Shown: one piece after another, positions 1,736-17,291 of the stretch | Position numbering within the stretch: position 1 is the first letter of the stretch | Layout: every line of letters begins with the position of its first letter | Assembly: GCA_963831855.1 (NCBI GenBank) | Contig: CAWHSA010000004.1 | Span: 194,475-258,474 of the forward strand | Direction: 5' to 3' | Length of the DNA: 64,000 nucleotides | From: an uncultured Bacteroidales bacterium | Lineage (GTDB): Bacteria > Bacteroidota > Bacteroidia > Bacteroidales > VadinHA17 | Program-made: the position numbers and the translations under genes | Notes under the pieces: model-generated | Databases searched by the model: none | What the model saw: only the letters and a program-made list of their open reading frames with translations | What the model was told of the DNA's origin: nothing

Positions 1736-2986
1736 TCATATCTTAAATAATCTGCAGATATGTCTGTTATAGATATTTTCAAAAACACATTCTGAAACTA
1801 TCTTTTCATTTGCATCAAGAAGCCGGATGTATTCGTCCATCTTTATTGCTGCCAGCTTGTAAGCTACATGTATAAGCTGTCGCATATTTGGATTATAGTA
1901 TTTATTTCCCGGTACATGTCTCAGTGACCCTGCAAACTTTTTACTGTCCCAGTCTTCAACTTCATTTTTTGACGGAAGCTGAGAAATATTGATATCAATA
2001 ACGTCTGCATAGGGGGCGCATAATTCTTCTGTTTTTTCAAGTGATTCGAAATAAATATTCTTGACGAAATCGAGGCCTTTGCCCCCTGATTCGGCAAGAC
2101 CTATTACCTCCTCCAGCCATGTTGTACCAGCTGTCTTAAGATGTATCCCCCTGTCATGCTTTTCAAGTATTGATCCAATGAAAGGATAAATAGCAAACTT
2201 ATCAGAACCTGAATGAACACTTATCTTAAGGTTTTGAGGGAGGCCGAACTCTTTAACTGCAAAATCTATCACCATAAGGTCCGCTTCAAATTCCTCTGCA
2301 AATTTTTCAGGATCGCCGGCATAGTCCACTCCTTTGTTGAAACGGCCTGAAAATTTCGGTGCAATTGTCTGCACCGGTATATTTTCCTCTCCCAGCATCT
2401 TAAGTATGAAGAGTAATTCTGCAGGTGTCTGAGGATGAGGCACTTCATCCATTGATACTTCCGTTACAAAATTACCCTTCCCCTTGGCTTTTTCTATTTT
2501 CCTGAAAATCTCCCATGCCTTAATAGCGGCAAAAAGGTATTTTTCAGCAACCTCTGTGATAAATTGTCTGGTGACTTTTAATGGTTTTTTTATTCCTTTG
2601 ATCATTAACTCACCGGAGTATTTTTCAGCCCCTTTTATAAATTCGGCTATTTCCTGTTCATTCGCCTTCTTACCTATATATGAAGCCACATCAATAGTGA
2701 AGAAATCGGAACTCCCGATAAACCTGTCTACTGTGTCGAGGTTAATATGGTCGGCATCAACAAAATACGGATTGGAAAAGCCGGCTTTCCCGGTTACATA
2801 ATCCGCTTCTTTTCTGACATCCGCAGGTTCAGTCCCGATTATGATATGTTCACGGTTGGATTTATTCCATACAGGTGTAATATCAATACCTTTTTTGCCA
2901 GCTTCAATAATAGCTTTCAGCTGTGCCCTTCCCTGGTGGCCGAATCTGTCGCCGAGTCCCATTGAGATTTTACCGAGGTTTTTCAT
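1736..2986 (-). CDS. uxaE: Tagaturonate/fructuronate epimerase-like protein (UxaE family)
   Basis: 416-aa ORF. The N-terminal MGLGDRFGHQG motif and overall size resemble UxaE TIM-barrel epimerases. Neighbours are exuT-, uxuB- and uxaC-like genes. Confidence 0.55.
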   Translation of the reverse strand: MKNLGKISMGLGDRFGHQGRAQLKAIIEAGKKGIDITPVWNKSNREHIIIGTEPADVRKEADYVTGKAGFSNPYFVDADHINLDTVDRFIGSSDFFTIDVASYIGKKANEQEIAEFIKGAEKYSGELMIKGIKKPLKVTRQFITEVAEKYLFAAIKAWEIFRKIEKAKGKGNFVTEVSMDEVPHPQTPAELLFILKMLGEENIPVQTIAPKFSGRFNKGVDYAGDPEKFAEEFEADLMVIDFAVKEFGLPQNLKISVHSGSDKFAIYPFIGSILEKHDRGIHLKTAGTTWLEEVIGLAESGGKGLDFVKNIYFESLEKTEELCAPYADVIDINISQLPSKNEVEDWDSKKFAGSLRHVPGNKYYNPNMRQLIHVAYKLAAIKMDEYIRLLDANEKIVSECVFENIYNRHICRLFKI

Positions 2987-3064: not shown

Positions 3065-4363
3065 TCACTCAAGAACAACCTTTTTATCTTTTGGTGCAAA
3101 CACTGTCATAATAATCCAGGCAATAAGATATGCGCTTCCGGCTATAGAAAACATAACAACATAACCTGTTTCAATGCGCCCAAGGGTCTTGAAATGCTGG
3201 AGGATTCCCCCGGCTAAATATGAAACAAAAGCACCGCCGGCGGCACCGGCCAATCCGCCGATTCCTGTGATTGAGCTGACTGCTTTCTTTGGAAAGGCAT
3301 CTGATACCGTTGTAAAGAGATTGGCGGACCATGCCTGGTGTGATGCGGCTGCGAGTGCAATAAGGCAGACTGCACCCCATGTGCTTACTCCTTTTGATTG
3401 TGCAAATATGATGGGCACAACCAGAACTGCAAAGATGAGCATGGTCATTTTTCTTGCCTTGAAAGCCGACATACCCTTCCTGATCATATATCCTGAAACC
3501 CATCCTCCACCTATGCTGCCTATTGTAGTCATTGTATAAATGAAGGCAAGAGGCAATCCGAATGATGAAACGCTGAGACCTGCACCTCTGACAGTGGAAA
3601 GCCAGCCGGGGATCCAGAACAGGTAAAACCACCAGATAGGGTCAGTCAGACCTTTTCCGATAAAGAATAGCCATGTCTGGCGGAACCTGAACAGCTTGAG
3701 CCATGAAACTTTCTCTTTAGTTTCATTCTGTTCATCAGCATCACTATTAATATAAGCAAGTTCACCTGCCGACACCTTTTTATGTTTTTCGGGGATTTCA
3801 TAAAGAATAAACCAGAAAATGACCCAGATAAAGCCTATTGATCCGGTGATGATGAATGCAGCCTGCCAGCTCCAGGCAACAATCATTGCAGGAATAGCCA
3901 GAGGTGCCACTATTGCCCCGACATTTGTACCTGAATTGAGTATCCCGAATGCGATGGCCCGTTCTTTCTTTGGGAACCATTCGGCTATCGCTTTATTTGC
4001 TGACGGAAAGTTCCCGGCTTCGCTCACACCGAGAAAACCCCTCCAGAATCCGAAACCCCACACACCTTTGGCAAGAGCATGTCCCATAGCTGCAATGCTC
4101 CAAAGTATGACCGAAACTCCATATCCTATCTTGGTCCCGTATTTGTCTATAAGGCGTCCTGCTACGAACATACCTACGGCATATAAGAGCTGGAACGCCA
4201 TAATTATGTGAGCATAGGCTTCTTCACCGATTCCCAGGTCAGATTCCAGAAGGGGTTTGAGAATACCTATAATCTGCCTGTCGAGGTAGTTAACTGTCGT
4301 TGCAAAGAAGATCAGGGCACAGACTGTCCATCTGTAGTTACTGAATTTTTTTATTTCTGTCAT
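3065..4363 (-). CDS. exuT: MFS transporter, hexuronate (ExuT/ACS-family) type
   Basis: 432-aa polytopic ORF. The N-terminus YRWTVCALIFFATTVNYLDRQIIGILKP is typical of ExuT-like MFS permeases, and it lies in a hexuronate gene context. Confidence 0.7.
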   Translation of the reverse strand: MTEIKKFSNYRWTVCALIFFATTVNYLDRQIIGILKPLLESDLGIGEEAYAHIIMAFQLLYAVGMFVAGRLIDKYGTKIGYGVSVILWSIAAMGHALAKGVWGFGFWRGFLGVSEAGNFPSANKAIAEWFPKKERAIAFGILNSGTNVGAIVAPLAIPAMIVAWSWQAAFIITGSIGFIWVIFWFILYEIPEKHKKVSAGELAYINSDADEQNETKEKVSWLKLFRFRQTWLFFIGKGLTDPIWWFYLFWIPGWLSTVRGAGLSVSSFGLPLAFIYTMTTIGSIGGGWVSGYMIRKGMSAFKARKMTMLIFAVLVVPIIFAQSKGVSTWGAVCLIALAAASHQAWSANLFTTVSDAFPKKAVSSITGIGGLAGAAGGAFVSYLAGGILQHFKTLGRIETGYVVMFSIAGSAYLIAWIIMTVFAPKDKKVVLE

Positions 4364-4383: not shown

Positions 4384-5838
4384 TTAAACATTATAGGTTG
4401 TGGAAGCAGTTGTTCCTCCTCTGCCTGTCCAGTTAGTGTGAAAGAACTCGCCTCTTGATTTATCAATGCGTTCATAAGTATGTGCGCCAAAATAATCGCG
4501 CTGGGCCTGAAGCAGGTTTGCAGGAAGCTTTTCGCACCGGTATCCGTCGAAATATCCCAACGCCGATGATATCGCGGGAACGGGGATGCCATAAGTCACA
4601 GCTGCTGAAACAACATTCCTCCAGCCAGCCTGCGCTTTATCTACCTTGTCGCTGAAGAATGGGTCAAGAAGGAGATTGCTTATTGAATGATTTTTTTCAA
4701 ATGCTTCTTTTATCTTACCGAGGAAAGCAGACCTTATTATACAACCTCCCCTCCACATAAGCGCAATACCGCCATAATTGAGATCCCATTTGTATTCTTC
4801 GGCAGCGGCTCTCATCAGAGAATATCCCTGTGCGTAGGATACGATTTTTGATGAATATAATGCATCCTTAAGATCATCAATAAATTTTTTCTTATTTCCT
4901 TTAAATGAAGATTTTGGTCCTTTAAGGATCTTTGATGCACTGACTCTTTCACCCTTCATTGCAGACAGGCATCTGGAAAAAACTGCTTCACCGATAAGTG
5001 TAAGAGGTATGCCGTGATCGAGGGCAGTAACGGCTGTCCACTTGCCAGTACCTTTTTGTCCGGCTGTATCGAGGATCTTATCCACTAACGGCTTACCGTC
5101 AGTATCTTTAAAGGCCAGGATATCCCTGGTAATCTCAATTAAATAACTGTCAAGATCTCCCTTGTTCCACTCTCTGAACACCAGGTGCATTTCATCCGGG
5201 GTCATATGAAGAAGATCTCTCATCATCTGATAAGCTTCACAGATAAGCTGCATATCGCCGTATTCAATTCCGTTATGCACCATTTTCACAAAATGACCTG
5301 CTCCGTTTTCGCCCACCCAGTCACAGCACGGAGTTCCGTCTTCGACTTTTGCCGCGATTGCCTGGAAAATTGGTTTCACCTCCGGCCATGCTGCTTTCGA
5401 TCCACCCGGCATTATTGACGGTCCAAGCAAGGCCCCTTCTTCACCTCCTGATACCCCTGTACCTATATAAAGCAATCCTTTACTTTCCACAAAAGCAGTA
5501 CGCCTGTTGGTGTCAGGAAAATGAGTATTTCCACCGTCTATTATTATATCACCCTTTTCAAGATATGGAATAAGGGTATTGATCATATCATCAACCGCGG
5601 TTCCGGCTTTTACCATCACCATAATTTTTCTTGGTCGTGCCAGGGTTTTAACCAGCTGTTCTACAGAATGAGCCCCGACAATATTTTTACCTTTTGCTCT
5701 TCCGGCAAGAAAATTATCCACCTTCTGTATGGTCCGGTTAAAGACAGTTACCTGAAATCCCTTGCTCTCCATATTAAGAACAAGATTCTCTCCCATAACT
5801 GCCAAACCTATTAATCCGATGTCAGATAAGTCTTTCAT
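4384..5838 (-). CDS. gnd: 6-phosphogluconate dehydrogenase, decarboxylating
   Basis: 484-aa ORF with a Rossmann N-terminus IGLIGLAVMGENLVLNMESKGF. Also has conserved GGNTHF, GTGVSGGEEGA and HNGIEYGDMQLI motifs. Confidence 0.9.
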   Translation of the reverse strand: MKDLSDIGLIGLAVMGENLVLNMESKGFQVTVFNRTIQKVDNFLAGRAKGKNIVGAHSVEQLVKTLARPRKIMVMVKAGTAVDDMINTLIPYLEKGDIIIDGGNTHFPDTNRRTAFVESKGLLYIGTGVSGGEEGALLGPSIMPGGSKAAWPEVKPIFQAIAAKVEDGTPCCDWVGENGAGHFVKMVHNGIEYGDMQLICEAYQMMRDLLHMTPDEMHLVFREWNKGDLDSYLIEITRDILAFKDTDGKPLVDKILDTAGQKGTGKWTAVTALDHGIPLTLIGEAVFSRCLSAMKGERVSASKILKGPKSSFKGNKKKFIDDLKDALYSSKIVSYAQGYSLMRAAAEEYKWDLNYGGIALMWRGGCIIRSAFLGKIKEAFEKNHSISNLLLDPFFSDKVDKAQAGWRNVVSAAVTYGIPVPAISSALGYFDGYRCEKLPANLLQAQRDYFGAHTYERIDKSRGEFFHTNWTGRGGTTASTTYNV

Positions 5839-5886
5839 TGTTATTTATTTATAAGTACATTAATCTTTTCAATGATTACGAAACGT

Positions 5887-7161
5887 TCATTTTGAAAGGC
5901 GTTCCCCTGAACTCCACAGCCCGACAGCAGGATTGGATATGTAAAATATTTCTTCTCCTTCTGCCAGCTGATTAAATCCATCTTTCAGCTTTTCCGGATT
6001 GTATTTTTTCAGAGCTTCACCAGGGTCGAGATACCTGAAATTAACTGATTCGATTTCCTGTCTTGTCAGATGTCCGGGGCAATAGGTGATTGAGAATCTA
6101 CCTTCAGAGCTTCCATGGATAAGATGGGCGGCAGCACTCAGGTTTTGCCTTAACTCTTCATTTTCCTTAAGTGCATCAAGCGTGGCTGGGGTGCCGCGAT
6201 AACCATATTTCCTGATAAGCCTGTCGATCTCCTTATCTTCGCCAAACTCCTTCAGTCCGGGGGCAAGGACGATCAATTCGCCATTATCAGCCATTGCCAT
6301 CCTGGTTCTGTATATGCTCTTGTTCCCCACCCAGGTGCACTTGAATTCTGAAGGATCAAGGTATACAACGACTCTCCGCAAAGGCTTATCGAAAACTGTA
6401 AAATTTACCTTCCGGGCAAGTTCTGCAGCAAGAAGGAATACCTCTTCATCAGAACCTATAAATAAACCGCGGATCACGAGCTTTCCGGCATCATCACGGC
6501 CAATAACAGTGTGAATATATACAACAGGAAGATGTGATATAAAATGTTCAGAGGCATAGTTCAGCAGGCTTCTGACCGGGGAGCTGGTTTTCCCCATTAT
6601 CCTTTCCATACCATATGTAGCTCCGATAAAATGGCTTTTATTTATGCTCTCAGAACCACCGGTTCCGACAAACAGATTCTTATTGTAATTGGCCATCCCT
6701 ATTACTTCGTGCGGAACTACCTGTCCGACCGACAGGATCAGGTCATGTCCGCCGTTATTAACGAGCCTGTTAAGCTGGGCCGGCCATGAATAATCGATTA
6801 CACCATCAGTCAGCTTTGAGATAAAATCACCAGGTATAGTTCCCACTGTTACCACATCTTTTCTCCAGTCATGAACACGGAAAAGTTCCTTTGGCACTTC
6901 CCGGAACATTTCCCCTATTTCGCTGTCAGTCATTGGTGCATGAGTTCCAAGGGCAGGAAGGATATCCTTCACATTACCTTTATAATACTTGTACAATAGC
7001 GTCGTTATATCACCAGCCCTCGAATGGAGCCGGGTGAAGTCTGGCGGAACGATCAGGATCTTTTTCCGTGACCCAAGCTTTACCAGGGCAGAATAGAGCC
7101 CATATTCAAGTTCATTATGATTTATTACTGTTGTCGGTGATCCCGATTGATAGTATATCAT
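5887..7161 (-). CDS. LarA-family (lactate racemase-like, nickel-pincer cofactor dependent) 2-hydroxyacid racemase/epimerase
   Basis: 424-aa ORF with DFTR and LGTH motifs. PHEVIGMANYNKNLFVGTGGSESINKSH gives H-x9-K-x15-H, the same spacing as catalytic His174, cofactor-tethering Lys184 and Ni-binding His200 of L. plantarum LarA. Confidence 0.75.
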   Translation of the reverse strand: MIYYQSGSPTTVINHNELEYGLYSALVKLGSRKKILIVPPDFTRLHSRAGDITTLLYKYYKGNVKDILPALGTHAPMTDSEIGEMFREVPKELFRVHDWRKDVVTVGTIPGDFISKLTDGVIDYSWPAQLNRLVNNGGHDLILSVGQVVPHEVIGMANYNKNLFVGTGGSESINKSHFIGATYGMERIMGKTSSPVRSLLNYASEHFISHLPVVYIHTVIGRDDAGKLVIRGLFIGSDEEVFLLAAELARKVNFTVFDKPLRRVVVYLDPSEFKCTWVGNKSIYRTRMAMADNGELIVLAPGLKEFGEDKEIDRLIRKYGYRGTPATLDALKENEELRQNLSAAAHLIHGSSEGRFSITYCPGHLTRQEIESVNFRYLDPGEALKKYNPEKLKDGFNQLAEGEEIFYISNPAVGLWSSGERLSK

Positions 7162-7258
7162 TAATTATAAACTTTCTGGAAATTAACTTTTTAATTATTA
7201 TCTAATACCTGGTTTACAGATCCTTAAACTTTAAACTTTAAACCTTAAACCCATAATA

Positions 7259-8095
7259 TCAAACCCCGCTATATGCACTGAATCCCCCGTCGACCGGGAT
7301 AATAACTCCGGTAACAGCTTTTGACAGATCTGAAGCAAGGTACAGCACGGTACCAGTAAGCTCTTCCGGAACTATATTCCTTTCCATTGGAGTGCCGTTA
7401 ATAATTTTTCTGCCCCTTGCTGTGAGCTCGCCCGTTTTCTCGTCGATCAGGAGGAACCTGTTTTGATTTGTTAACAGGAAACCCGGCGCTATGGCATTTA
7501 CCCTGACACCGGCCTTTGCAAAATGAACTGCAAGCCATTGTGTGAAATTATTAACAGCAGCTTTGGCAGCGGAGTAAGCAGGGATCTTGGTAAGCGGTCT
7601 GTACGAATTCATAGAGGAAATATTTATTATCACCCCCGATCTCCTGTTAACCATATCAGCACCGAAAACCATGGATGGTAAAAGTGTACCTTTAAAATTA
7701 AGATCAAACACCTTATCGAAGCCTTCGATCTGGAGACCAAAGAATGTCTCTTCAGGTTTTTCGCTTCCATCCATCTTTTCGACTTTGGTAGTGGCGGCCG
7801 GTGAATTGCCACCTGCGCCGTTAACCAGGATATCGACAGTTCCAAGCTTTTCATGAATGGTTTTTCTTGCTGCCTCCAGTGAGGCCTTATCGAGAACACT
7901 TGCAGATATACCTATTGATTTTGTTCCGGTTTCCTTTTCGATTTCCTGTGCAACTCTGTTAGCAGCATCTTTATTTAAATCGAGGATCACTGTGAGAGCA
8001 CCATGAGCAGAAAGTGATTTTGCCATTTCAGAGCAAATAACACCCGCGCCTCCGGTTATAACTGCGATTTTATTATTAAGATTGAGTTCGTTCAT
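7259..8095 (-). CDS. uxuB: SDR-family oxidoreductase, D-mannonate oxidoreductase (fructuronate reductase) type
   Basis: 278-aa ORF with the TGGAGVIC cofactor motif and the YSAAK catalytic motif. Lies immediately downstream of uxaC on the same strand, as in Bacteroidota hexuronate loci. Confidence 0.6.
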   Translation of the reverse strand: MNELNLNNKIAVITGGAGVICSEMAKSLSAHGALTVILDLNKDAANRVAQEIEKETGTKSIGISASVLDKASLEAARKTIHEKLGTVDILVNGAGGNSPAATTKVEKMDGSEKPEETFFGLQIEGFDKVFDLNFKGTLLPSMVFGADMVNRRSGVIINISSMNSYRPLTKIPAYSAAKAAVNNFTQWLAVHFAKAGVRVNAIAPGFLLTNQNRFLLIDEKTGELTARGRKIINGTPMERNIVPEELTGTVLYLASDLSKAVTGVIIPVDGGFSAYSGV

Positions 8096-8117
8096 ATTAC
8101 ATTCGTTGATTTATTGC

Positions 8118-9515
8118 TTAATATCCGAAATGCTCTTTTGCATTCCTGTATGAAATTCCTTCAATTAAAGGTTTCAGGAGTTCATCTTCATCAGGTATAA
8201 GACCTTTTTCTACCTCTTCACCAACAAAGTTGCAAATGAGCCTCCGGAAATATTCGTGTCTGGGGTAGGAGAGAAAGCTTCTTGAATCAGTCACCATACC
8301 TATAAATCTTCTCATAAGTCCAAGAGATGCTACATCTCTTATATGTTTTTCCATACCATTTATCTGATCAAGGAACCACCAGGCCGGACCATATTGCACT
8401 TTTACCGGAGTTGAACCATCATTGAAATTTCCAGCCATGGTCACCATCATTTCATTGTCAGCCGGGTTAAGATTATAAAGGATGGATCTGGCGAGCTGAT
8501 CAGTCTCATCCAGGCTGCTCAGAAACTTCGACATCTTCAGAGCATCCTGGGGAACTCCGATAGAATCCCACCCTGTATCAGGCCCCATAAGCCGGAACAT
8601 TCTGGAATTATTATTTCTCATAGCGCCTACATGAAATTGCTGGGTCCATCCTCTTTTATGGTTCATACGGCAAAGTTCAGTCATAACTGCTGCCTTATAC
8701 TTTTCAGACTCCTCTGATGACAGCTCATTGCCATTCAATATTTTTTTAAGGATTTTATCTGCTTCAGCCTCCTTACAGGGGGCAAAGTAAAAACGGTCAA
8801 GTCCGTGATCTGATGATCTGCCCCCCATCTCGTGAAAATATGCATGTCGTTTGTCGAGCGCCTCCGCAAGGCTCTTAAAGTTTTTGATCTCAATACCGCT
8901 GGCACTGCCCAGTTTATTAATGTATGATTTGAATTTTAACGGATCTTCAGTTTTAATCGAGTTATCCGGACGGAATGTCGGGATAATCCTGATTTCAAAA
9001 ACACCTTTTAACTGTTGATGGTGCTCCAAAGTATCCGCCGGGTCATCAGTGGTGCAAACAACCTCTACATTCATTTTCTTCAGAAGTGCCCTGATGCTGA
9101 ATTCTTTTGTCTGCAATAAGGCGCCTGTATTCTCATAAATTGTTGAAGCAGTTGACTGAGAAAGCAAATCAAAAATATTGAAATACCTTGCAAGCTCAAG
9201 ATGTGTCCAGTGATAAAGAGGATTCCCTACTGTTAAAGGCACTGTTTCTGCCCATTTACTGAATTTCTCAAAATCCGGAGCATTGCCTGTGCAATATTTT
9301 TCACTGATCCCGTTTGTTCTCATAGCACGCCATTTGTAGTGGTCGCCTGCAAGCCATGCCTGCGTAAGATCTGAGAATTGCCTGTCATCTGCTATCATTC
9401 CAGGTGAGAGATGACAATGAAAATCAATTATCGGAAGATTTTTAGAGAATTGATTGTACAGTCTTACTGCAGTCTTATTTCCAAGGAGAAAATCCTCGTG
9501 GATAAAGGTTTTCAT
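8118..9515 (-). CDS. uxaC: Glucuronate isomerase
   Basis: Carries the IIDFHCHLSP motif and full-length similarity to UxaC. The likely start is the internal Met (MKTFIHEDFLL) at 9515 rather than the longest ORF start at 9569. Confidence 0.9.
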   Translation of the reverse strand: MKTFIHEDFLLGNKTAVRLYNQFSKNLPIIDFHCHLSPGMIADDRQFSDLTQAWLAGDHYKWRAMRTNGISEKYCTGNAPDFEKFSKWAETVPLTVGNPLYHWTHLELARYFNIFDLLSQSTASTIYENTGALLQTKEFSIRALLKKMNVEVVCTTDDPADTLEHHQQLKGVFEIRIIPTFRPDNSIKTEDPLKFKSYINKLGSASGIEIKNFKSLAEALDKRHAYFHEMGGRSSDHGLDRFYFAPCKEAEADKILKKILNGNELSSEESEKYKAAVMTELCRMNHKRGWTQQFHVGAMRNNNSRMFRLMGPDTGWDSIGVPQDALKMSKFLSSLDETDQLARSILYNLNPADNEMMVTMAGNFNDGSTPVKVQYGPAWWFLDQINGMEKHIRDVASLGLMRRFIGMVTDSRSFLSYPRHEYFRRLICNFVGEEVEKGLIPDEDELLKPLIEGISYRNAKEHFGY

Positions 9516-9698
9516 AGAAGAATTATTAATATTTATAAAAGTACTATTTTGACTTTTAATACCAAGCAATAATTGGCGTTAACACTAACGAAAATTTTTT
9601 TGCTGCATTTATTTAATTGTCAATCCGGGACAGTTCAAAAATAAACCTTTTAAAATAAAAGTTCAATTGGATGTAATTGCGTTTCCGGTCAAAGAATG

Positions 9699-9706
9699 TA
9701 TTTTTG
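9699..9706 (+). promoter_or_regulatory. Candidate Bacteroidota -7 promoter box (TAnnTTTG)
   Basis: The sequence TATTTTTG lies about 35 nt upstream of the GH105 start codon, in the divergent uxaC/GH105 intergenic region. Confidence 0.3.
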
Positions 9707-9740
9707 TTTATAATCGAATAATTAAAATAAGTAGTTTAAG

Positions 9741-10898
9741 ATGAAATGCCGGAAATCTCTGTTGACTGCAATCATTCTGCTTGCTTTTGCACCAGGTTAT
9801 TCACAGGAGCAGTCAGCATCTTCTTTCAAACCTGATCTGAATCAGGAAAATGTAAGAAGTATACTTAAAGCTGTTGCTGACTGGCAGATCAGAACCCCGC
9901 TTACACATCACCTGGCCGACTGGACAAATGGAGCATTGTATGCAGGAATGGCCGATTGGGCTGGAATTGCAGGCAATGAAACTTATTATGACTGGCTCAG
10001 AGGGATTGGTGAAAAACTTTCGTGGAATTATTATATCCAGCCGGACAAGCCATCGAGACGTTATCATGCTGACGACTACTGCGTCGGTCAGATGTATATT
10101 GAACTTTACCGGAAATATCACGACAAGAAAATGATATTGCCTGTGAGGGCATATTTTGACCAGATTCTTAAAGATCCTGCAACAGGCAGCCTTAAATTTG
10201 AAGATACAAAGAATTACTACAGGACTGAAAGGTGGTCATGGTGCGACGCTCTGTTTATGGCTCCCACAGTATGGGCCAAAATGGCAAATATCACCCATAA
10301 AGCAAAATACCTTAACTTCATGTACCAGGAGTATAAGGCTACAACTGATTACCTTTATGATAAGGATGACGATCTGTATTTCAGGGATTCAAATTATTTC
10401 ACGCGCAGGGAAGCTAACGGGGCTAAGGTATTCTGGGGACGGGGAAACGGATGGGTTTTCGCCGGCCTTCCGGTAATAATCAGGGAATTACCTTCAAAAT
10501 ATGAAAACAAGGATTACTTTGTGACTATTTTTAAGGATATGGCCGCAAAGCTAATTTCCCTGCAAGAGCCCGATGGATCATGGCATGCAAGCCTCCTTGA
10601 TCCGGGAAGTTACCCGAACCCGGAGATGAGCGCAACGGCTTTCTTCGTATTCGGTCTGGCCTGGGGAGTAGATAACGGTTATCTTGAAAAGGAGAAATAC
10701 CTTACCGCAGTGATCAACGGATGGAAATCAATGGTAATTGCCGTATGGCCTGACGGAAAGGTTGGATTCATTCAGCCTATAGGTGCTGATCCTAAAGCTG
10801 TTACACGTGAAATGACAGAAGTATATGGCATAGGAGGATTCCTGATGGCAGGTACTCAGATCTATAAAATGATTAAGAAAGGGACCATAAAAAATTGA
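9741..10898 (+). CDS. Unsaturated rhamnogalacturonyl/glucuronyl hydrolase (GH105/GH88 family), secreted
   Basis: 385-aa ORF with a signal peptide. The (alpha/alpha)6-type sequence has YHADDYCVGQ, WCDALFM and GRGNGW motifs characteristic of the YteR/YesR family. Confidence 0.8.
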   Translation: MKCRKSLLTAIILLAFAPGYSQEQSASSFKPDLNQENVRSILKAVADWQIRTPLTHHLADWTNGALYAGMADWAGIAGNETYYDWLRGIGEKLSWNYYIQPDKPSRRYHADDYCVGQMYIELYRKYHDKKMILPVRAYFDQILKDPATGSLKFEDTKNYYRTERWSWCDALFMAPTVWAKMANITHKAKYLNFMYQEYKATTDYLYDKDDDLYFRDSNYFTRREANGAKVFWGRGNGWVFAGLPVIIRELPSKYENKDYFVTIFKDMAAKLISLQEPDGSWHASLLDPGSYPNPEMSATAFFVFGLAWGVDNGYLEKEKYLTAVINGWKSMVIAVWPDGKVGFIQPIGADPKAVTREMTEVYGIGGFLMAGTQIYKMIKKGTIKN

Positions 10899-10998: not shown

Positions 10999-11835
10999 AT
11001 GAAAACTGAACTTCGATATTCCGGACATCCCCTCGATGTAAAGACCTATGATACGGAAAAGCTCCGGAAGGAATTTCTCATTGAAAAAGTCTTTATACCA
11101 GAGGACATTAATCTTGTTTATTCCCTGTACGACAGGATTATAGCAGGAGGTGCAATGCCTGTAAGAAAAACTCTGAAACTTGAGCCTGTCGAGATGGTTA
11201 AAGCGTCATTTTTTCTTGAAAGAAGAGAGATGGGGATTATAAATATTGGCGGAGAATCAATCGTGGAGACCGGAGATATTGTTTTTAAATTAGGATATAA
11301 GGAAGCCCTTTATCTCGGAAGAAGCACAAGGGATGTCGTATTTAAATCGGTAGATCCTGATAAACCGGGGAAACTGTACATTAATTCGGCACCCGCACAC
11401 CGGGAATACCCTTCGAAGAGAATTACACTGAAAGATGCTGAAGTTGTTGAAATGGGAAGTCCCGGAGAGTCAAACCACAGAACAATCAATAAACTGATTC
11501 ATACAAGTGTATTACCTACCTGCCAGCTACAAATGGGATTGACAGAACTGAAAACCGGAAGTGTATGGAACACAATGCCTGTCCATACCCATATCAGAAG
11601 GATGGAAGTCTATTTTTATTTTGAAGTACCGGAAAAGCAAGCCGTATGCCATTTTATGGGTGACCCGGACGAGACCCGCCATATCTGGATGAAAAACGAG
11701 CAGGCTGTTATATCGCCTGCCTGGAGCATTCATAGTGCTGCCGGAACTTCCAATTATACCTTTATCTGGGGAATGTGCGGTGAAAATATGGATTATGGCG
11801 ATGTGGCTTCACGTTTACCAGATACACTTAAATAA
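10999..11835 (+). CDS. kduI: 5-dehydro-4-deoxy-D-glucuronate isomerase
   Basis: 278 aa, near-colinear with E. coli KduI. Shared segments include FLERRELG-type, CQLQMGLTEL, HTHxRRMEVYFYF and YTFIWGM. Confidence 0.9.
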   Translation: MKTELRYSGHPLDVKTYDTEKLRKEFLIEKVFIPEDINLVYSLYDRIIAGGAMPVRKTLKLEPVEMVKASFFLERREMGIINIGGESIVETGDIVFKLGYKEALYLGRSTRDVVFKSVDPDKPGKLYINSAPAHREYPSKRITLKDAEVVEMGSPGESNHRTINKLIHTSVLPTCQLQMGLTELKTGSVWNTMPVHTHIRRMEVYFYFEVPEKQAVCHFMGDPDETRHIWMKNEQAVISPAWSIHSAAGTSNYTFIWGMCGENMDYGDVASRLPDTLK

Positions 11836-11928: not shown

Positions 11929-12723
11929 ATGAAAGAATTATTTGACTTAACCGGGAAAATAGCTCTCGTCACCGGAGGTACGCATGGTATCGGTCTGGCT
12001 ATCGGATTGATACTGGGAAAAGCCGGAGCAAAGGTCTGTGTGAATGATCTCGATGAACAAAAGCTTAAAAAATGTAGAGATGAATTCAAAAAAGAAAGGC
12101 TTGAAGTTTATACTCTTAAATTCAATGTAACAGACGAAAAGGACGTGGATAAAGGTATATCAGACATTGAGAAAAATGCAGGGTCAGTTGATATCCTTGT
12201 TAATAATGCAGGAATTATAAAACGTATTCCGATTCTTGATATGGCCGTGTCTGATTACAAACAGGTGATAGATGTCGACCTTGTGGCTCCGTTCATTGTT
12301 TCAAAAAGGGTCGTTCCGGAAATGATAAGGAAAAGATCAGGTAAAATAATAAATATGTGCTCTATGATGAGTGTCTATGGTCGTAATACGGTATCGGCGT
12401 ATGCCTCAGCGAAAGGGGGATTAAAGCTGCTGACTCAGAATATGACCTGTGAATGGGCTAAATATAATATTCAGATCAACGGGATTGGCCCGGGCTATAT
12501 TATTACTGCACAAACCGGACCTATCAGGGAAAACGGACATCCCTTCAATGACCTGGTTATGACACGTACTCCTGCCGGGAGATGGGGCGAACCCAAAGAT
12601 GTCGCCAATGCAGCTCTTTTCCTCGCTTCGAAAGCCAGTGATTTTGTTAATGGCCATATTCTGTATGTTGATGGAGGAATCCTGGCGAACTTCGGGTATG
12701 TGAAGGGGGAAAATGAAGTTTAA
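11929..12723 (+). CDS. kduD: 2-dehydro-3-deoxy-D-gluconate 5-dehydrogenase / gluconate 5-dehydrogenase-type SDR
   Basis: 264-aa SDR with TGGTHGIG, NNAG and YASAKGG motifs, located directly downstream of kduI. Confidence 0.7.
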   Translation: MKELFDLTGKIALVTGGTHGIGLAIGLILGKAGAKVCVNDLDEQKLKKCRDEFKKERLEVYTLKFNVTDEKDVDKGISDIEKNAGSVDILVNNAGIIKRIPILDMAVSDYKQVIDVDLVAPFIVSKRVVPEMIRKRSGKIINMCSMMSVYGRNTVSAYASAKGGLKLLTQNMTCEWAKYNIQINGIGPGYIITAQTGPIRENGHPFNDLVMTRTPAGRWGEPKDVANAALFLASKASDFVNGHILYVDGGILANFGYVKGENEV

Positions 12724-15375: not shown

Positions 15376-15810
15376 TCAGTTATACTTTAATCTTAGATTT
15401 ACCTTATTATTATTTACATAATAGCATGGATCATCACATGAATTCTTATCATATTTTACATGAGGTGAAACAGCATCAATTGCAACATATTGATTTCCGT
15501 GGCCCGGATTATAGGTGGCAGTTACTGTGTAATATCTGTTGGCAGGAACAACGACGCTGAATTCCTCAGTATGGACCAGAGCTGTATAATATAAAACATT
15601 ATCCTCCAGCCTGCCCTCATAAATATTAATCCGGACACCTCCATACCTTACATCGATTTTTAAAATTATATTTACTTCTGCGGGATCATTTGCAGTACAT
15701 TCATTACAATCAACTGTGAGAGTACTTAACTCTTCGCATGAAAACATGAATGCCAACAGGATAAGTGCAGAAATTCCTGCAAAGTTTCTTATATAAGTTT
15801 TCAGTACCAT
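15376..15810 (-). CDS. Small lipoprotein, unknown function
   Basis: 144 aa with a signal peptide and lipobox-like FMFSC. It overlaps the upstream ankyrin gene by 10 nt on the same strand. Confidence 0.5.
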   Translation of the reverse strand: MVLKTYIRNFAGISALILLAFMFSCEELSTLTVDCNECTANDPAEVNIILKIDVRYGGVRINIYEGRLEDNVLYYTALVHTEEFSVVVPANRYYTVTATYNPGHGNQYVAIDAVSPHVKYDKNSCDDPCYYVNNNKVNLRLKYN

Positions 15811-17291
15811 CTGATAATCTTACCCGGGGCTCTTGAATTGTCAAAATAAAAATTGTAAGCAAAGCCAATCCTTGCCCATAGAGGCCCGATTTTATTAAAA
15901 CCGCTCCTTGAATATTCCAAACCTGTGAATAAAAAATAATTATTCCGGGTCCATTTAAATCCTAACCCGGGAATAATTTTAAATTTTTCAGCGGGAGCTA
16001 TGTCGGTGCCCTTAAACTTATTGCCGAACGAGTATCCAAATGACAAAGTTGTATAGAATGATTTGTTTCCTCTCAATATATTATTTGTCAGCGGAAACTC
16101 CTTGAAAACACCTGCATAAACCACCGAGCTTTTATCTCTGTACTGATAATAAAGATCATCTGATTCTTTGGATAATACCCTTGTATACCAGAGTTTTGTG
16201 TCGGCGCCTGCCATAAATCCGATGTTTGTCAGCGGTTCCTTGAAATTAAAGGCAAACCCGGTATATAAATCATGAAAGCATAACCTGGATGATGCAGAAA
16301 CAGCTATCTGATCGAACCTGAAGTTGAATCCCTGCCGTAAATTGCTCTTGTCCAGAATTTCGATAATATCTTTTCTTCCGTACTTTACCGCAATGGAGTA
16401 GGGATTTATTAAATCCGATCCGGAATCGGTCCATTTATCACCTTTATTCAGCAGGTAGAGAGTTGCATCCTTCTGATCGGATTTAATTGACAGGCATAAT
16501 GCATTCCACCCGTAGAGGTTTTTTTCATAGATATCAACGCCATTTTTAATAAGCAGGCCAAGCGACAGTGTATCGCCGTTCTGACCTGCAATTAAAAAGG
16601 GAGTAAATCCCAAATTATCCCTTGCTTCAATATTGGCACCGTTCCGGATCAGCAGATCCTCAATATCAGGATAACCTGACCAGGCAGCTGACATAAGGGG
16701 AGAACTCCCGTCATTTGCCTTTTTATTAATGTCGGCTCCATAGTATATAAGGAGGTCGACAAAAGAAATCAATCCATAAATTGAAGAGTAATTAATTGGG
16801 GTAACTCCTGATTTATCCTGAAAATCTATATCGGCACCGGCTCTTATCAGCGCTTCAGCAATCTCCAGATAATGATGGTTGATTCCGATATTCTCCAGTT
16901 GTAGGCCCTGGTAGACTTTCTGATTTTCTGTTTTTATTGCAATTAAAAGTGGTGTCTGTCCGTCAGCAGTAACTTTATTGGGGTCAGCATCATAATTTAA
17001 TAGGACCTTAACTGCATTTAACCTGTCATTTGCAACTGCAAATATGAGTGGGGTAGCCCCTTCAGAAGACTCAGAATTCACATCGGCACCCATATAGATA
17101 AGCCTCTCAATCTCTTTCTCATAACCCCTCTGTGCTGCGACCATCAGATTATAATCCAGGGCTCCTTCATAAAAAAGAGGTAAATATCCTGAAGTATCTA
17201 TTTTGACATTCTGGGCGGTCATCCTCAATGGGAAAAAGAAGATGATACCGGCTGTAAAGAATATTAAGATTGTGACTTTTGTCAGCTTCAT
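15801..17291 (-). CDS. Ankyrin-repeat protein with C-terminal beta-barrel-like domain
   Basis: 496 aa with a signal peptide and multiple ANK repeats (G-TPL--A---G/N-------LL--GAD). The C-terminal ~170 aa has alternating hydrophobic beta-strand character and ends in an aromatic residue (IIRWY). Confidence 0.75.
   Translation of the reverse strand: MKLTKVTILIFFTAGIIFFFPLRMTAQNVKIDTSGYLPLFYEGALDYNLMVAAQRGYEKEIERLIYMGADVNSESSEGATPLIFAVANDRLNAVKVLLNYDADPNKVTADGQTPLLIAIKTENQKVYQGLQLENIGINHHYLEIAEALIRAGADIDFQDKSGVTPINYSSIYGLISFVDLLIYYGADINKKANDGSSPLMSAAWSGYPDIEDLLIRNGANIEARDNLGFTPFLIAGQNGDTLSLGLLIKNGVDIYEKNLYGWNALCLSIKSDQKDATLYLLNKGDKWTDSGSDLINPYSIAVKYGRKDIIEILDKSNLRQGFNFRFDQIAVSASSRLCFHDLYTGFAFNFKEPLTNIGFMAGADTKLWYTRVLSKESDDLYYQYRDKSSVVYAGVFKEFPLTNNILRGNKSFYTTLSFGYSFGNKFKGTDIAPAEKFKIIPGLGFKWTRNNYFLFTGLEYSRSGFNKIGPLWARIGFAYNFYFDNSRAPGKIIRWY

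Follow-up and report, generated by a model that had tools for sequence, protein, structure and literature searches.

For anaerobic Bacteroidota, the hexuronates of pectin, hemicellulose and host glycans rank among the main sources of carbon. The stretch of DNA analysed here, 64 kb of contig CAWHSA010000004.1 from an uncultured Bacteroidales bacterium (hereafter the window), carries a hexuronate operon in which the gene for a homologue of the nickel-pincer enzyme LarA stands between those for a fructuronate reductase and for 6-phosphogluconate dehydrogenase, Gnd. We propose, with a probability of about two in three, that this homologue is a D-mannonate/D-gluconate 2-epimerase dependent on the nickel-pincer nucleotide (NPN), linking the mannonate-forming steps of the operon to Gnd with the help of a kinase encoded elsewhere.

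Such a route was proposed for Thermotoga maritima by Rodionova et al. 2012, as related by Valk et al. 2020 and Desguin et al. 2020: GntE (TM0442) would convert mannonate to gluconate and, with GntK and Gnd acting next, carbon from hexuronates would reach pentose-phosphate metabolism; according to the same accounts, GntE homologues were also noted in Lactobacillus, Acidobacterium and Terriglobus. In Thermotoga the genes form the operon aldH-pelB-gnd-uxaRED-gntEK, which is under UxaR control and rises 2- to 5-fold in expression on pectin. D-gluconate 2-epimerase activity, which the initial annotation of the window mentioned as occurring among LarA homologues, was demonstrated by Desguin et al. 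2020 for GntE1 (group 19 of their classification) and GntE2 (group 20), the latter turning over free mannonate at 197 per s. These authors hypothesised that group 18 epimerises a hexonate; in their Table S1 the neighbours of group-18 genes are short-chain dehydrogenase/reductases (SDR; 36%), 6-phosphogluconate dehydrogenase (32%), ribokinase-family kinases (16%) and MFS transporters, UxaC and KduI (12% each), and LarB, LarC and LarE are not among them.

A further LarA homologue, LarAH15 of Phytophthora nicotianae, was shown to be a GntE active on D-mannonate/D-gluconate only, with a Km of 9.4 mM, a kcat of 111 per s and a kcat/Km of 1.2e4 (JBC 2024). Its cloning primer encodes MATLLFAEG, and the LarA-like part of P. 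infestans PITG_09435 (…MTLLFAEGSKTAEL…), a protein placed in group 18 in Dataset S2 of Desguin et al. 2020, begins in the same way; because of this match of the N-terminus we infer that LarAH15 itself belongs to group 18. A different order of steps was described by Valk et al. 2020 for L. suebicus, which metabolises galacturonate via mannonate to 6-phosphogluconate and Gnd: a mannonate kinase acts before a 6-phosphomannonate 2-epimerase. No genes were assigned to these two activities, and we found no later paper naming them. The shunt from mannonate through gluconate and 6-phosphogluconate to Gnd is thus already published as a concept and partly demonstrated, and is not a new pathway; the initial annotation, which knew of no demonstration of such a route, is out of date on this point, given the 2012 proposal, the activities reported in 2020 and 2024 and the L. 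suebicus route. Group 18, its context of SDR, Gnd, kinase, UxaC and KduI, and its equivalog model are likewise already catalogued, and the window adds one more example.

Family, residues and fold of the LarA homologue

By its sequence, the 424-residue product of the gene at 5887-7161 clearly belongs to group 18 within the LarA superfamily. Against NF052594, the NCBIfam equivalog model named 'nickel-dependent putative hexonate epimerase' (cut-off 500), it scores 653.2 bits; this model is the counterpart of group 18 ('G2E3') in the classification of Desguin et al. 2020. The match is full-length, residues 11-417 to model positions 3-410, and its E-value of 1.3e-196 rules out chance. Pfam Lar_N is matched at 38 bits (cut-off 23). 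A quick maximum-likelihood tree of five published group-18 sequences and one representative each of groups 1, 19 and 20 places the protein inside the group-18 clade with SH-aLRT support of 98. Identity is 66% to Melioribacter roseus MROS_2332, 62% to Tannerella forsythia BFO_3309 and 58% to Acidobacterium capsulatum ACP_2683, all of which share its signature residues, and falls to 46% with a divergent group-18 member of Terriglobus roseus. A diatom group-18 member is 52% identical, and it is through this proxy only that the identity of the eukaryotic LarAH15, probably of the same group, can be estimated. GntE1 of C. glutamicum (32%) and GntE2 of T. maritima (27%) are more distant. No identical database record exists for the exact protein.

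The residues on which LarA chemistry depends are all present. LarA of L. plantarum is barely alignable with the protein overall (about 25% identity over one short segment), and its D72, R75, H108, H174, K184, H200 and K298 correspond to D41, R44, H74, H151, K161, H177 and K281. In this alignment H74 and H151 match the catalytic histidines, K161 the lysine to which NPN is tethered, H177 the nickel ligand, D41 and R44 (in the motif DFTR, 41-44) the phosphate-binding pair and K281 the carboxylate-binding lysine; H74 ends the motif GTH, 72-74. The initial annotation had read H151, K161, H177, DFTR and GTH74 as mirroring LarA, and alignment to LarA puts them at exactly those positions. All of these residues are invariant across 61 homologues, which, since they include the NPN-tethering lysine, the histidine that binds nickel and the Asp/Arg pair that binds phosphate, argues for use of the NPN cofactor by the protein. 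The pocket differs from that of LarA, E152/V153 and W277 occupying the positions of F175/F176 and Y294, and so does the class of substrate.

The group-18 signature, D R H H E V K H V W L/V N K S A A L I H S, is fully matched. Its first 13 positions (D41, R44, H74, H151, E152, V153, K161, H177, V196, W277, V278, N280 and K281) were placed by alignment, and the C-terminal ones (S342, A344, A345, L347, I348, H349 and S351, compared with Dataset S2) were read off the motif LSAAAHLIHGS. V278 (codon 6328-6330), the equivalent of LarA Q295, is Leu in most group-18 members and in all 77 fetched homologues; Val is found also in T. forsythia. Nothing essential otherwise differs between the protein and the other members of the group.

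An AlphaFold2 model of the protein (pLDDT 91, pTM 0.88) has the same fold as L. plantarum LarA (5HUQ). Its best Foldseek match, with a TM-score of 0.81, is 4NAR, the structure of T. maritima Q9WYS3/TM0442, i.e. GntE2 (LarAH20), a protein of the same fold but of a different group; the next 18 significant matches are all LarA-family structures. A sequence search of the PDB likewise returns 4NAR (E = 1.7e-35).

The operon and its counterparts in related loci

The features of the locus are as follows.

8118-9569, minus strand: uxaC, glucuronate/galacturonate isomerase, first gene of the operon (Pfam UxaC 659.6 bits; NCBIfam NF002794 614.6 bits)
7259-8095, minus strand: SDR-type fructuronate reductase/D-mannonate oxidoreductase, UxuB-type (NCBIfam PRK08277 387 bits, cut-off 281)
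5887-7161, minus strand: LarA homologue of group 18 (GntE-type), 424 amino acids, predicted nickel-pincer D-mannonate/D-gluconate 2-epimerase (NF052594, Lar_N)
4384-5838, minus strand: gnd, decarboxylating NADP-dependent 6-phosphogluconate dehydrogenase (TIGR00873 776 bits)
3065-4363, minus strand: MFS transporter resembling ExuT and D-galactonate transporters, predicted to take up hexuronates (Pfam MFS_1 182 bits; TIGR00893 216 bits, below cut-off)
1736-2986, minus strand: uxaE, tagaturonate/fructuronate epimerase, last gene of the operon (Pfam UxaE 178.7 bits)
9570-9740, no strand: AT-rich divergent intergenic region seen on inspection of the sequence, a putative promoter region by its position only
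9741-10898, plus strand: GH88/GH105-type unsaturated uronyl hydrolase (Pfam Glyco_hydro_88 277 bits)
10999-11835, plus strand: KduI (NF002091 414 bits)
11929-12723, plus strand: KduD-type SDR (PRK07097 427 bits)

The order uxaC, SDR, LarA homologue, gnd, ExuT-like transporter and uxaE is that given by the initial annotation, with which both the open reading frames and the family scans agree. UxaC, UxaE, the fructuronate reductase, the epimerase and Gnd are thus all encoded within a single tight minus-strand operon, whose gaps from uxaC to uxaE are 22, 97, 48, 20 and 78 bp. The window was scanned with Pfam on nearly all open reading frames of at least 150 amino acids, and by tblastn with reference proteins from related loci. 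These scans found no UxuA, KdgK-type PfkB or Eda, so that the absence of a mannonate dehydratase, 2-keto-3-deoxygluconate (KDG) kinase and KDPG aldolase, first remarked for the locus, extends to the whole 64 kb; nor did they find GFO (Gfo/Idh/MocA oxidoreductase), PFK, HAD or PdxB proteins.

These genes would define the following route. Hexuronates would be imported by the ExuT-like transporter; UxaC would isomerise glucuronate to fructuronate and galacturonate to tagaturonate, and UxaE would epimerise tagaturonate to fructuronate; the SDR would reduce fructuronate to D-mannonate with NAD(P)H. The LarA homologue would then convert mannonate to gluconate, inverting C2 by proton-coupled hydride transfer to and from tethered NPN through a 2-keto intermediate; a kinase encoded outside the window would make 6-phosphogluconate; and Gnd would yield ribulose-5-phosphate, CO2 and NADPH. 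Conversion of hexuronate to pentose phosphate would be redox-neutral overall, Gnd repaying the NAD(P)H used by fructuronate reductase. Pentose phosphates would be obtained directly, the fermentation balance would be altered relative to the KDG route, and growth on uronic acids would become dependent on nickel. Since the adjoining kduI and kduD make KDG, which needs both KdgK and KdgA, these enzymes should be encoded elsewhere; the classical lower pathway (KdgK, KdgA/Eda) is probably present in the genome, and the shunt probably runs alongside it rather than replacing it. The initial annotation had the shunt bypassing the classical route, a suggestion weakened by KduI and KduD next door and by the presence of both routes in Thermotoga and L. 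suebicus.

The same pathway logic has been proposed for the Thermotoga gene order gnd-uxaR-uxaE-uxaD-gntE-gntK, where uxaE, fructuronate reductase, epimerase and gnd share one hexuronate/pectin operon. There a gluconate kinase of the FGGY type (COG1070) lies beside gntE, whereas the window has no kinase for the route and its relatives use PfkB or PFK plus HAD proteins. The hybrid isomerase/phosphoketolase pathway of L. suebicus (Valk et al. 2020) likewise leads through UxaC, UxaE and UxuB to mannonate, and from there to 6-phosphogluconate and Gnd with redox neutrality, but with the kinase acting first and the epimerase on 6-phosphomannonate; the paper draws no link to LarA. With the published group-18 members the window shares the context of SDR, Gnd, ribokinase-family kinase, MFS transporter, UxaC and KduI, except that many of these members have an adjoining kinase and a GFO gene and the window operon is without both.

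Relatives of the LarA homologue are encoded in at least 590 genomes among those of species representatives, so the epimerase family is widespread. The comparisons below concern the best 80 loci of these (63-82% identity), in which open reading frames were called and clustered and the recurrent clusters annotated; most are from Bacteroidota, with others from Ignavibacteriota, Verrucomicrobiota and Acidobacteriota and a few contigs labelled as other phyla. Sequence downstream of the epimerase gene sufficed in 57 loci, upstream sequence was available in 64, and 44 were full-length. The conserved core is SDR - [kinase] - LarAH - [GFO] [PdxB-like] - Gnd, the bracketed genes being present in some loci, and its usual companions are UxaC, UxaE, MFS or TRAP transporters, LacI and KduI/KduD. 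An SDR gene lies near that of the epimerase in 52 of 64 loci and an MFS transporter clusters with it in 39 of 78; uxaE is present in 30 of the 44 full-length loci, uxuA in 3 and eda in 8. Most relevant to the proposed function, gnd follows the epimerase on the same strand within three genes in 45 of 57 loci: 38/45 in Bacteroidota, 5/5 in Ignavibacteriota, 1/1 in Acidobacteriota and 1/5 in Verrucomicrobiota. The prediction that a mannonate/gluconate 2-epimerase feeds Gnd, made in the initial annotation, is therefore well supported by family, residues and gnd synteny in four phyla; its novelty is not.

A housekeeping zwf-pgl-gnd cluster was considered as an explanation for gnd and rejected, because neither the window nor any related locus shows a glucose-6-phosphate dehydrogenase (zwf) motif.

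Kinase, cofactor supply and competing explanations

Neither the operon nor the window encodes a gluconate or mannonate kinase detectable by Pfam, NCBIfam or tblastn. In relatives, kinases adjoin the epimerase in 31 of 64 loci: a PfkB protein in 23 (e.g. L034:8900-9990, L042:8881-9990 and L055:8816-9900) and a PFK-like protein together with a HAD-like one in 8, the two kinds never occurring together. In three close relatives of the window's clade, a kinase of this epimerase-linked PfkB kind lies beyond uxaE, at the opposite edge of the locus. Identity of the epimerase-linked PfkB proteins with KdgK was rejected. They form two clades in the PfkB tree, split from the Eda-adjoining KdgK clade with full support, and they coexist with a member of the KdgK clade in eight loci, in seven of which that member adjoins Eda; because of this separation and coexistence we take them to be distinct paralogues. 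Their closest solved relatives are KDG-kinase-like PfkB proteins. We regard them as candidate hexonate (gluconate or mannonate) kinases, from a family not known for such activity. Ten unlabelled open reading frames near the epimerase in relatives, eight of them of GntK- or FGGY-like size and two directly upstream, include none that Pfam recognises as a kinase.

Where the second kind of kinase is found, the PfkB gene directly upstream of the epimerase is replaced by genes for a protein resembling pyrophosphate-dependent phosphofructokinase (closest PDB entry 3K2Q) and a HAD protein. Loci of this kind include L028 (PFK-like 7739-9022, then HAD), L016, L026, L027, L037, L072 and L078. That the PFK-like enzyme phosphorylates fructuronate, by the likeness of this compound to fructose-6-phosphate, is pure speculation.

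NPN synthesis requires consideration as well. A PP-loop motif search, together with tblastn using the LarB, LarC and LarE of Saccharicrinis, places larBCE within 10 kb of the epimerase gene in a single one of the 80 related loci, in agreement with their absence from the group-18 neighbours tabulated by Desguin et al. 2020. The one locus, from Saccharicrinis sp. FJH62 (L042:12819-18599), has directly after SDR-PfkB-LarAH-Gnd a convergent six-gene cluster encoding a TonB-dependent receptor, NikR (122 bits), a 244-residue membrane protein that is possibly a nickel transporter, LarB (301 bits, cut-off 175), LarC (219 and 151 bits on two domain models) and LarE (288 bits, cut-off 150). Nickel uptake and regulation and NPN synthesis are here physically tied to the predicted hexuronate shunt in one Bacteroidota isolate.

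Several observations weigh against a mannonate/gluconate epimerase working with Gnd. Alongside the lack of a kinase gene in the window, Pfam and tblastn find no LarB, LarC or LarE within its 64 kb, and the rarity of larBCE in related loci points the same way. In 12 of 57 loci gnd is not near the epimerase. The single assayed enzyme attributed to group 18, LarAH15, is eukaryotic, and its placement in the group follows from a primer and an orthologue. GntE enzymes have Km values of 9-120 mM for free mannonate (JBC 2024; Desguin et al. 2020), and extracts of L. suebicus had no epimerase activity on free mannonate (Valk et al. 2020).

The last of these points recalls the order of reactions in L. 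suebicus, and the same order might operate here: the PfkB kinase, or the PFK-like and HAD pair, would phosphorylate mannonate or possibly fructuronate, and the group-18 enzyme would then convert 6-phosphomannonate to 6-phosphogluconate for Gnd. L. suebicus extracts required ATP first and had 6-phosphomannonate 2-epimerase activity (Valk et al. 2020), and several features of the relatives would suit this scheme: the gene order SDR-kinase-LarAH-gnd, the mutual exclusion of PfkB (23/64) and PFK with HAD (8/64) beside the epimerase, the separation of the epimerase-adjoining PfkB clades from Eda-adjoining KdgK when both kinds share a locus, the presence in 8 loci of a PdxB-like phospho-hydroxyacid dehydrogenase between epimerase and gnd, and the lack of a canonical gluconate kinase among the size-selected unlabelled open reading frames scanned near the epimerase. 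Phosphorylated substrates are also unmentioned in the LarA-homologue studies of Desguin et al. 2020 and JBC 2024. Yet turnover rates on free mannonate are 111 per s for LarAH15, putatively of group 18, and 197 per s for GntE2, gene order is a poor indicator of reaction order, and the window has no kinase; a kinase adjoining the epimerase suits prior epimerisation equally, so that the arrangement in relatives fits either order. We consider phosphorylation before epimerisation unlikely. Were it to occur, a nickel-pincer enzyme would be a phospho-sugar-acid epimerase, and Bacteroidota, Ignavibacteriota and Verrucomicrobiota would share a widespread nickel-dependent, redox-neutral hexuronate route, to which GFO-type and PdxB-like dehydrogenases would contribute accessory steps.

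Two further explanations dispense with the link between mannonate, gluconate and Gnd. Flux might pass through UxuA, KdgK and KdgA encoded elsewhere, with gnd a mere neighbour and the LarA homologue in a minor, salvage or unrelated role: KDG made by the adjoining kduI-kduD products implies KdgK and Eda somewhere in the genome, some relatives have uxuA (3/44) or eda (8/44) in the same locus, and the two routes coexist in T. maritima and in L. suebicus. The position of gnd makes this quite improbable, for it stands between the epimerase and transporter genes, 48 bp from the one and 20 bp from the other; its same-strand place behind the epimerase recurs in 45 of 57 loci from four phyla; zwf never accompanies it; and uxuA is rare in related loci. 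Alternatively the substrate might be some other sugar acid, such as L-gulonate/L-idonate, D-altronate/D-allonate or an aldarate, seeing that Desguin et al. 2020 specified the group-18 substrate no further than 'a hexonate' and put forward uronic or aldaric acids as group-19 substrates, and that the signature of group 18 differs from those of groups 19 and 20 at the pocket positions N280, S342 and S351. D-mannonate, however, is the product predicted of the operon's own enzymes, only gluconate connects to Gnd, and LarAH15 is specific for the mannonate/gluconate pair, leaving a different substrate very doubtful indeed. Epimerisation of free mannonate to gluconate ahead of a kinase and Gnd remains the reading we prefer.

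Accessory genes and other observations

A GFO gene (e.g. L063:8042-9034) directly follows that of the epimerase in 17 of 44 full-length loci, its product being closest in the PDB to 1,5-anhydro-D-fructose reductase. The PdxB-like 2-hydroxyacid dehydrogenase (e.g. L070:11281-12423) is the other gene inserted in relatives, between epimerase and gnd; neither is found in the window. Four epimerase loci lacking gnd (L031, L033, L035 and L040) have, between uxaC and uxaE, genes for a 3-keto-disaccharide hydrolase and for large GFO-type oxidoreductases resembling glycoside-3-dehydrogenases.

Promoter and terminator scans of the window gave nothing above chance, the consensus used being unsuited to Bacteroidota. 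Among public sequencing runs, 16% of the words of the locus were found in one soil-metagenome run only, and in no RNA runs.

In the divergent gene set, the top family of the SDR adjoining kduI (11929-12723) is not KduD but PRK07097, 'gluconate 5-dehydrogenase'; its context suggests KduD function, and the family name may mislead automatic annotation. Further along, an ankyrin-repeat protein of 496 amino acids (15801-17291, minus strand; Ank_2 134 bits) is encoded in this Bacteroidales-like genome, and it is kept, together with a neighbouring open reading frame of 144 amino acids, in 10 related loci.

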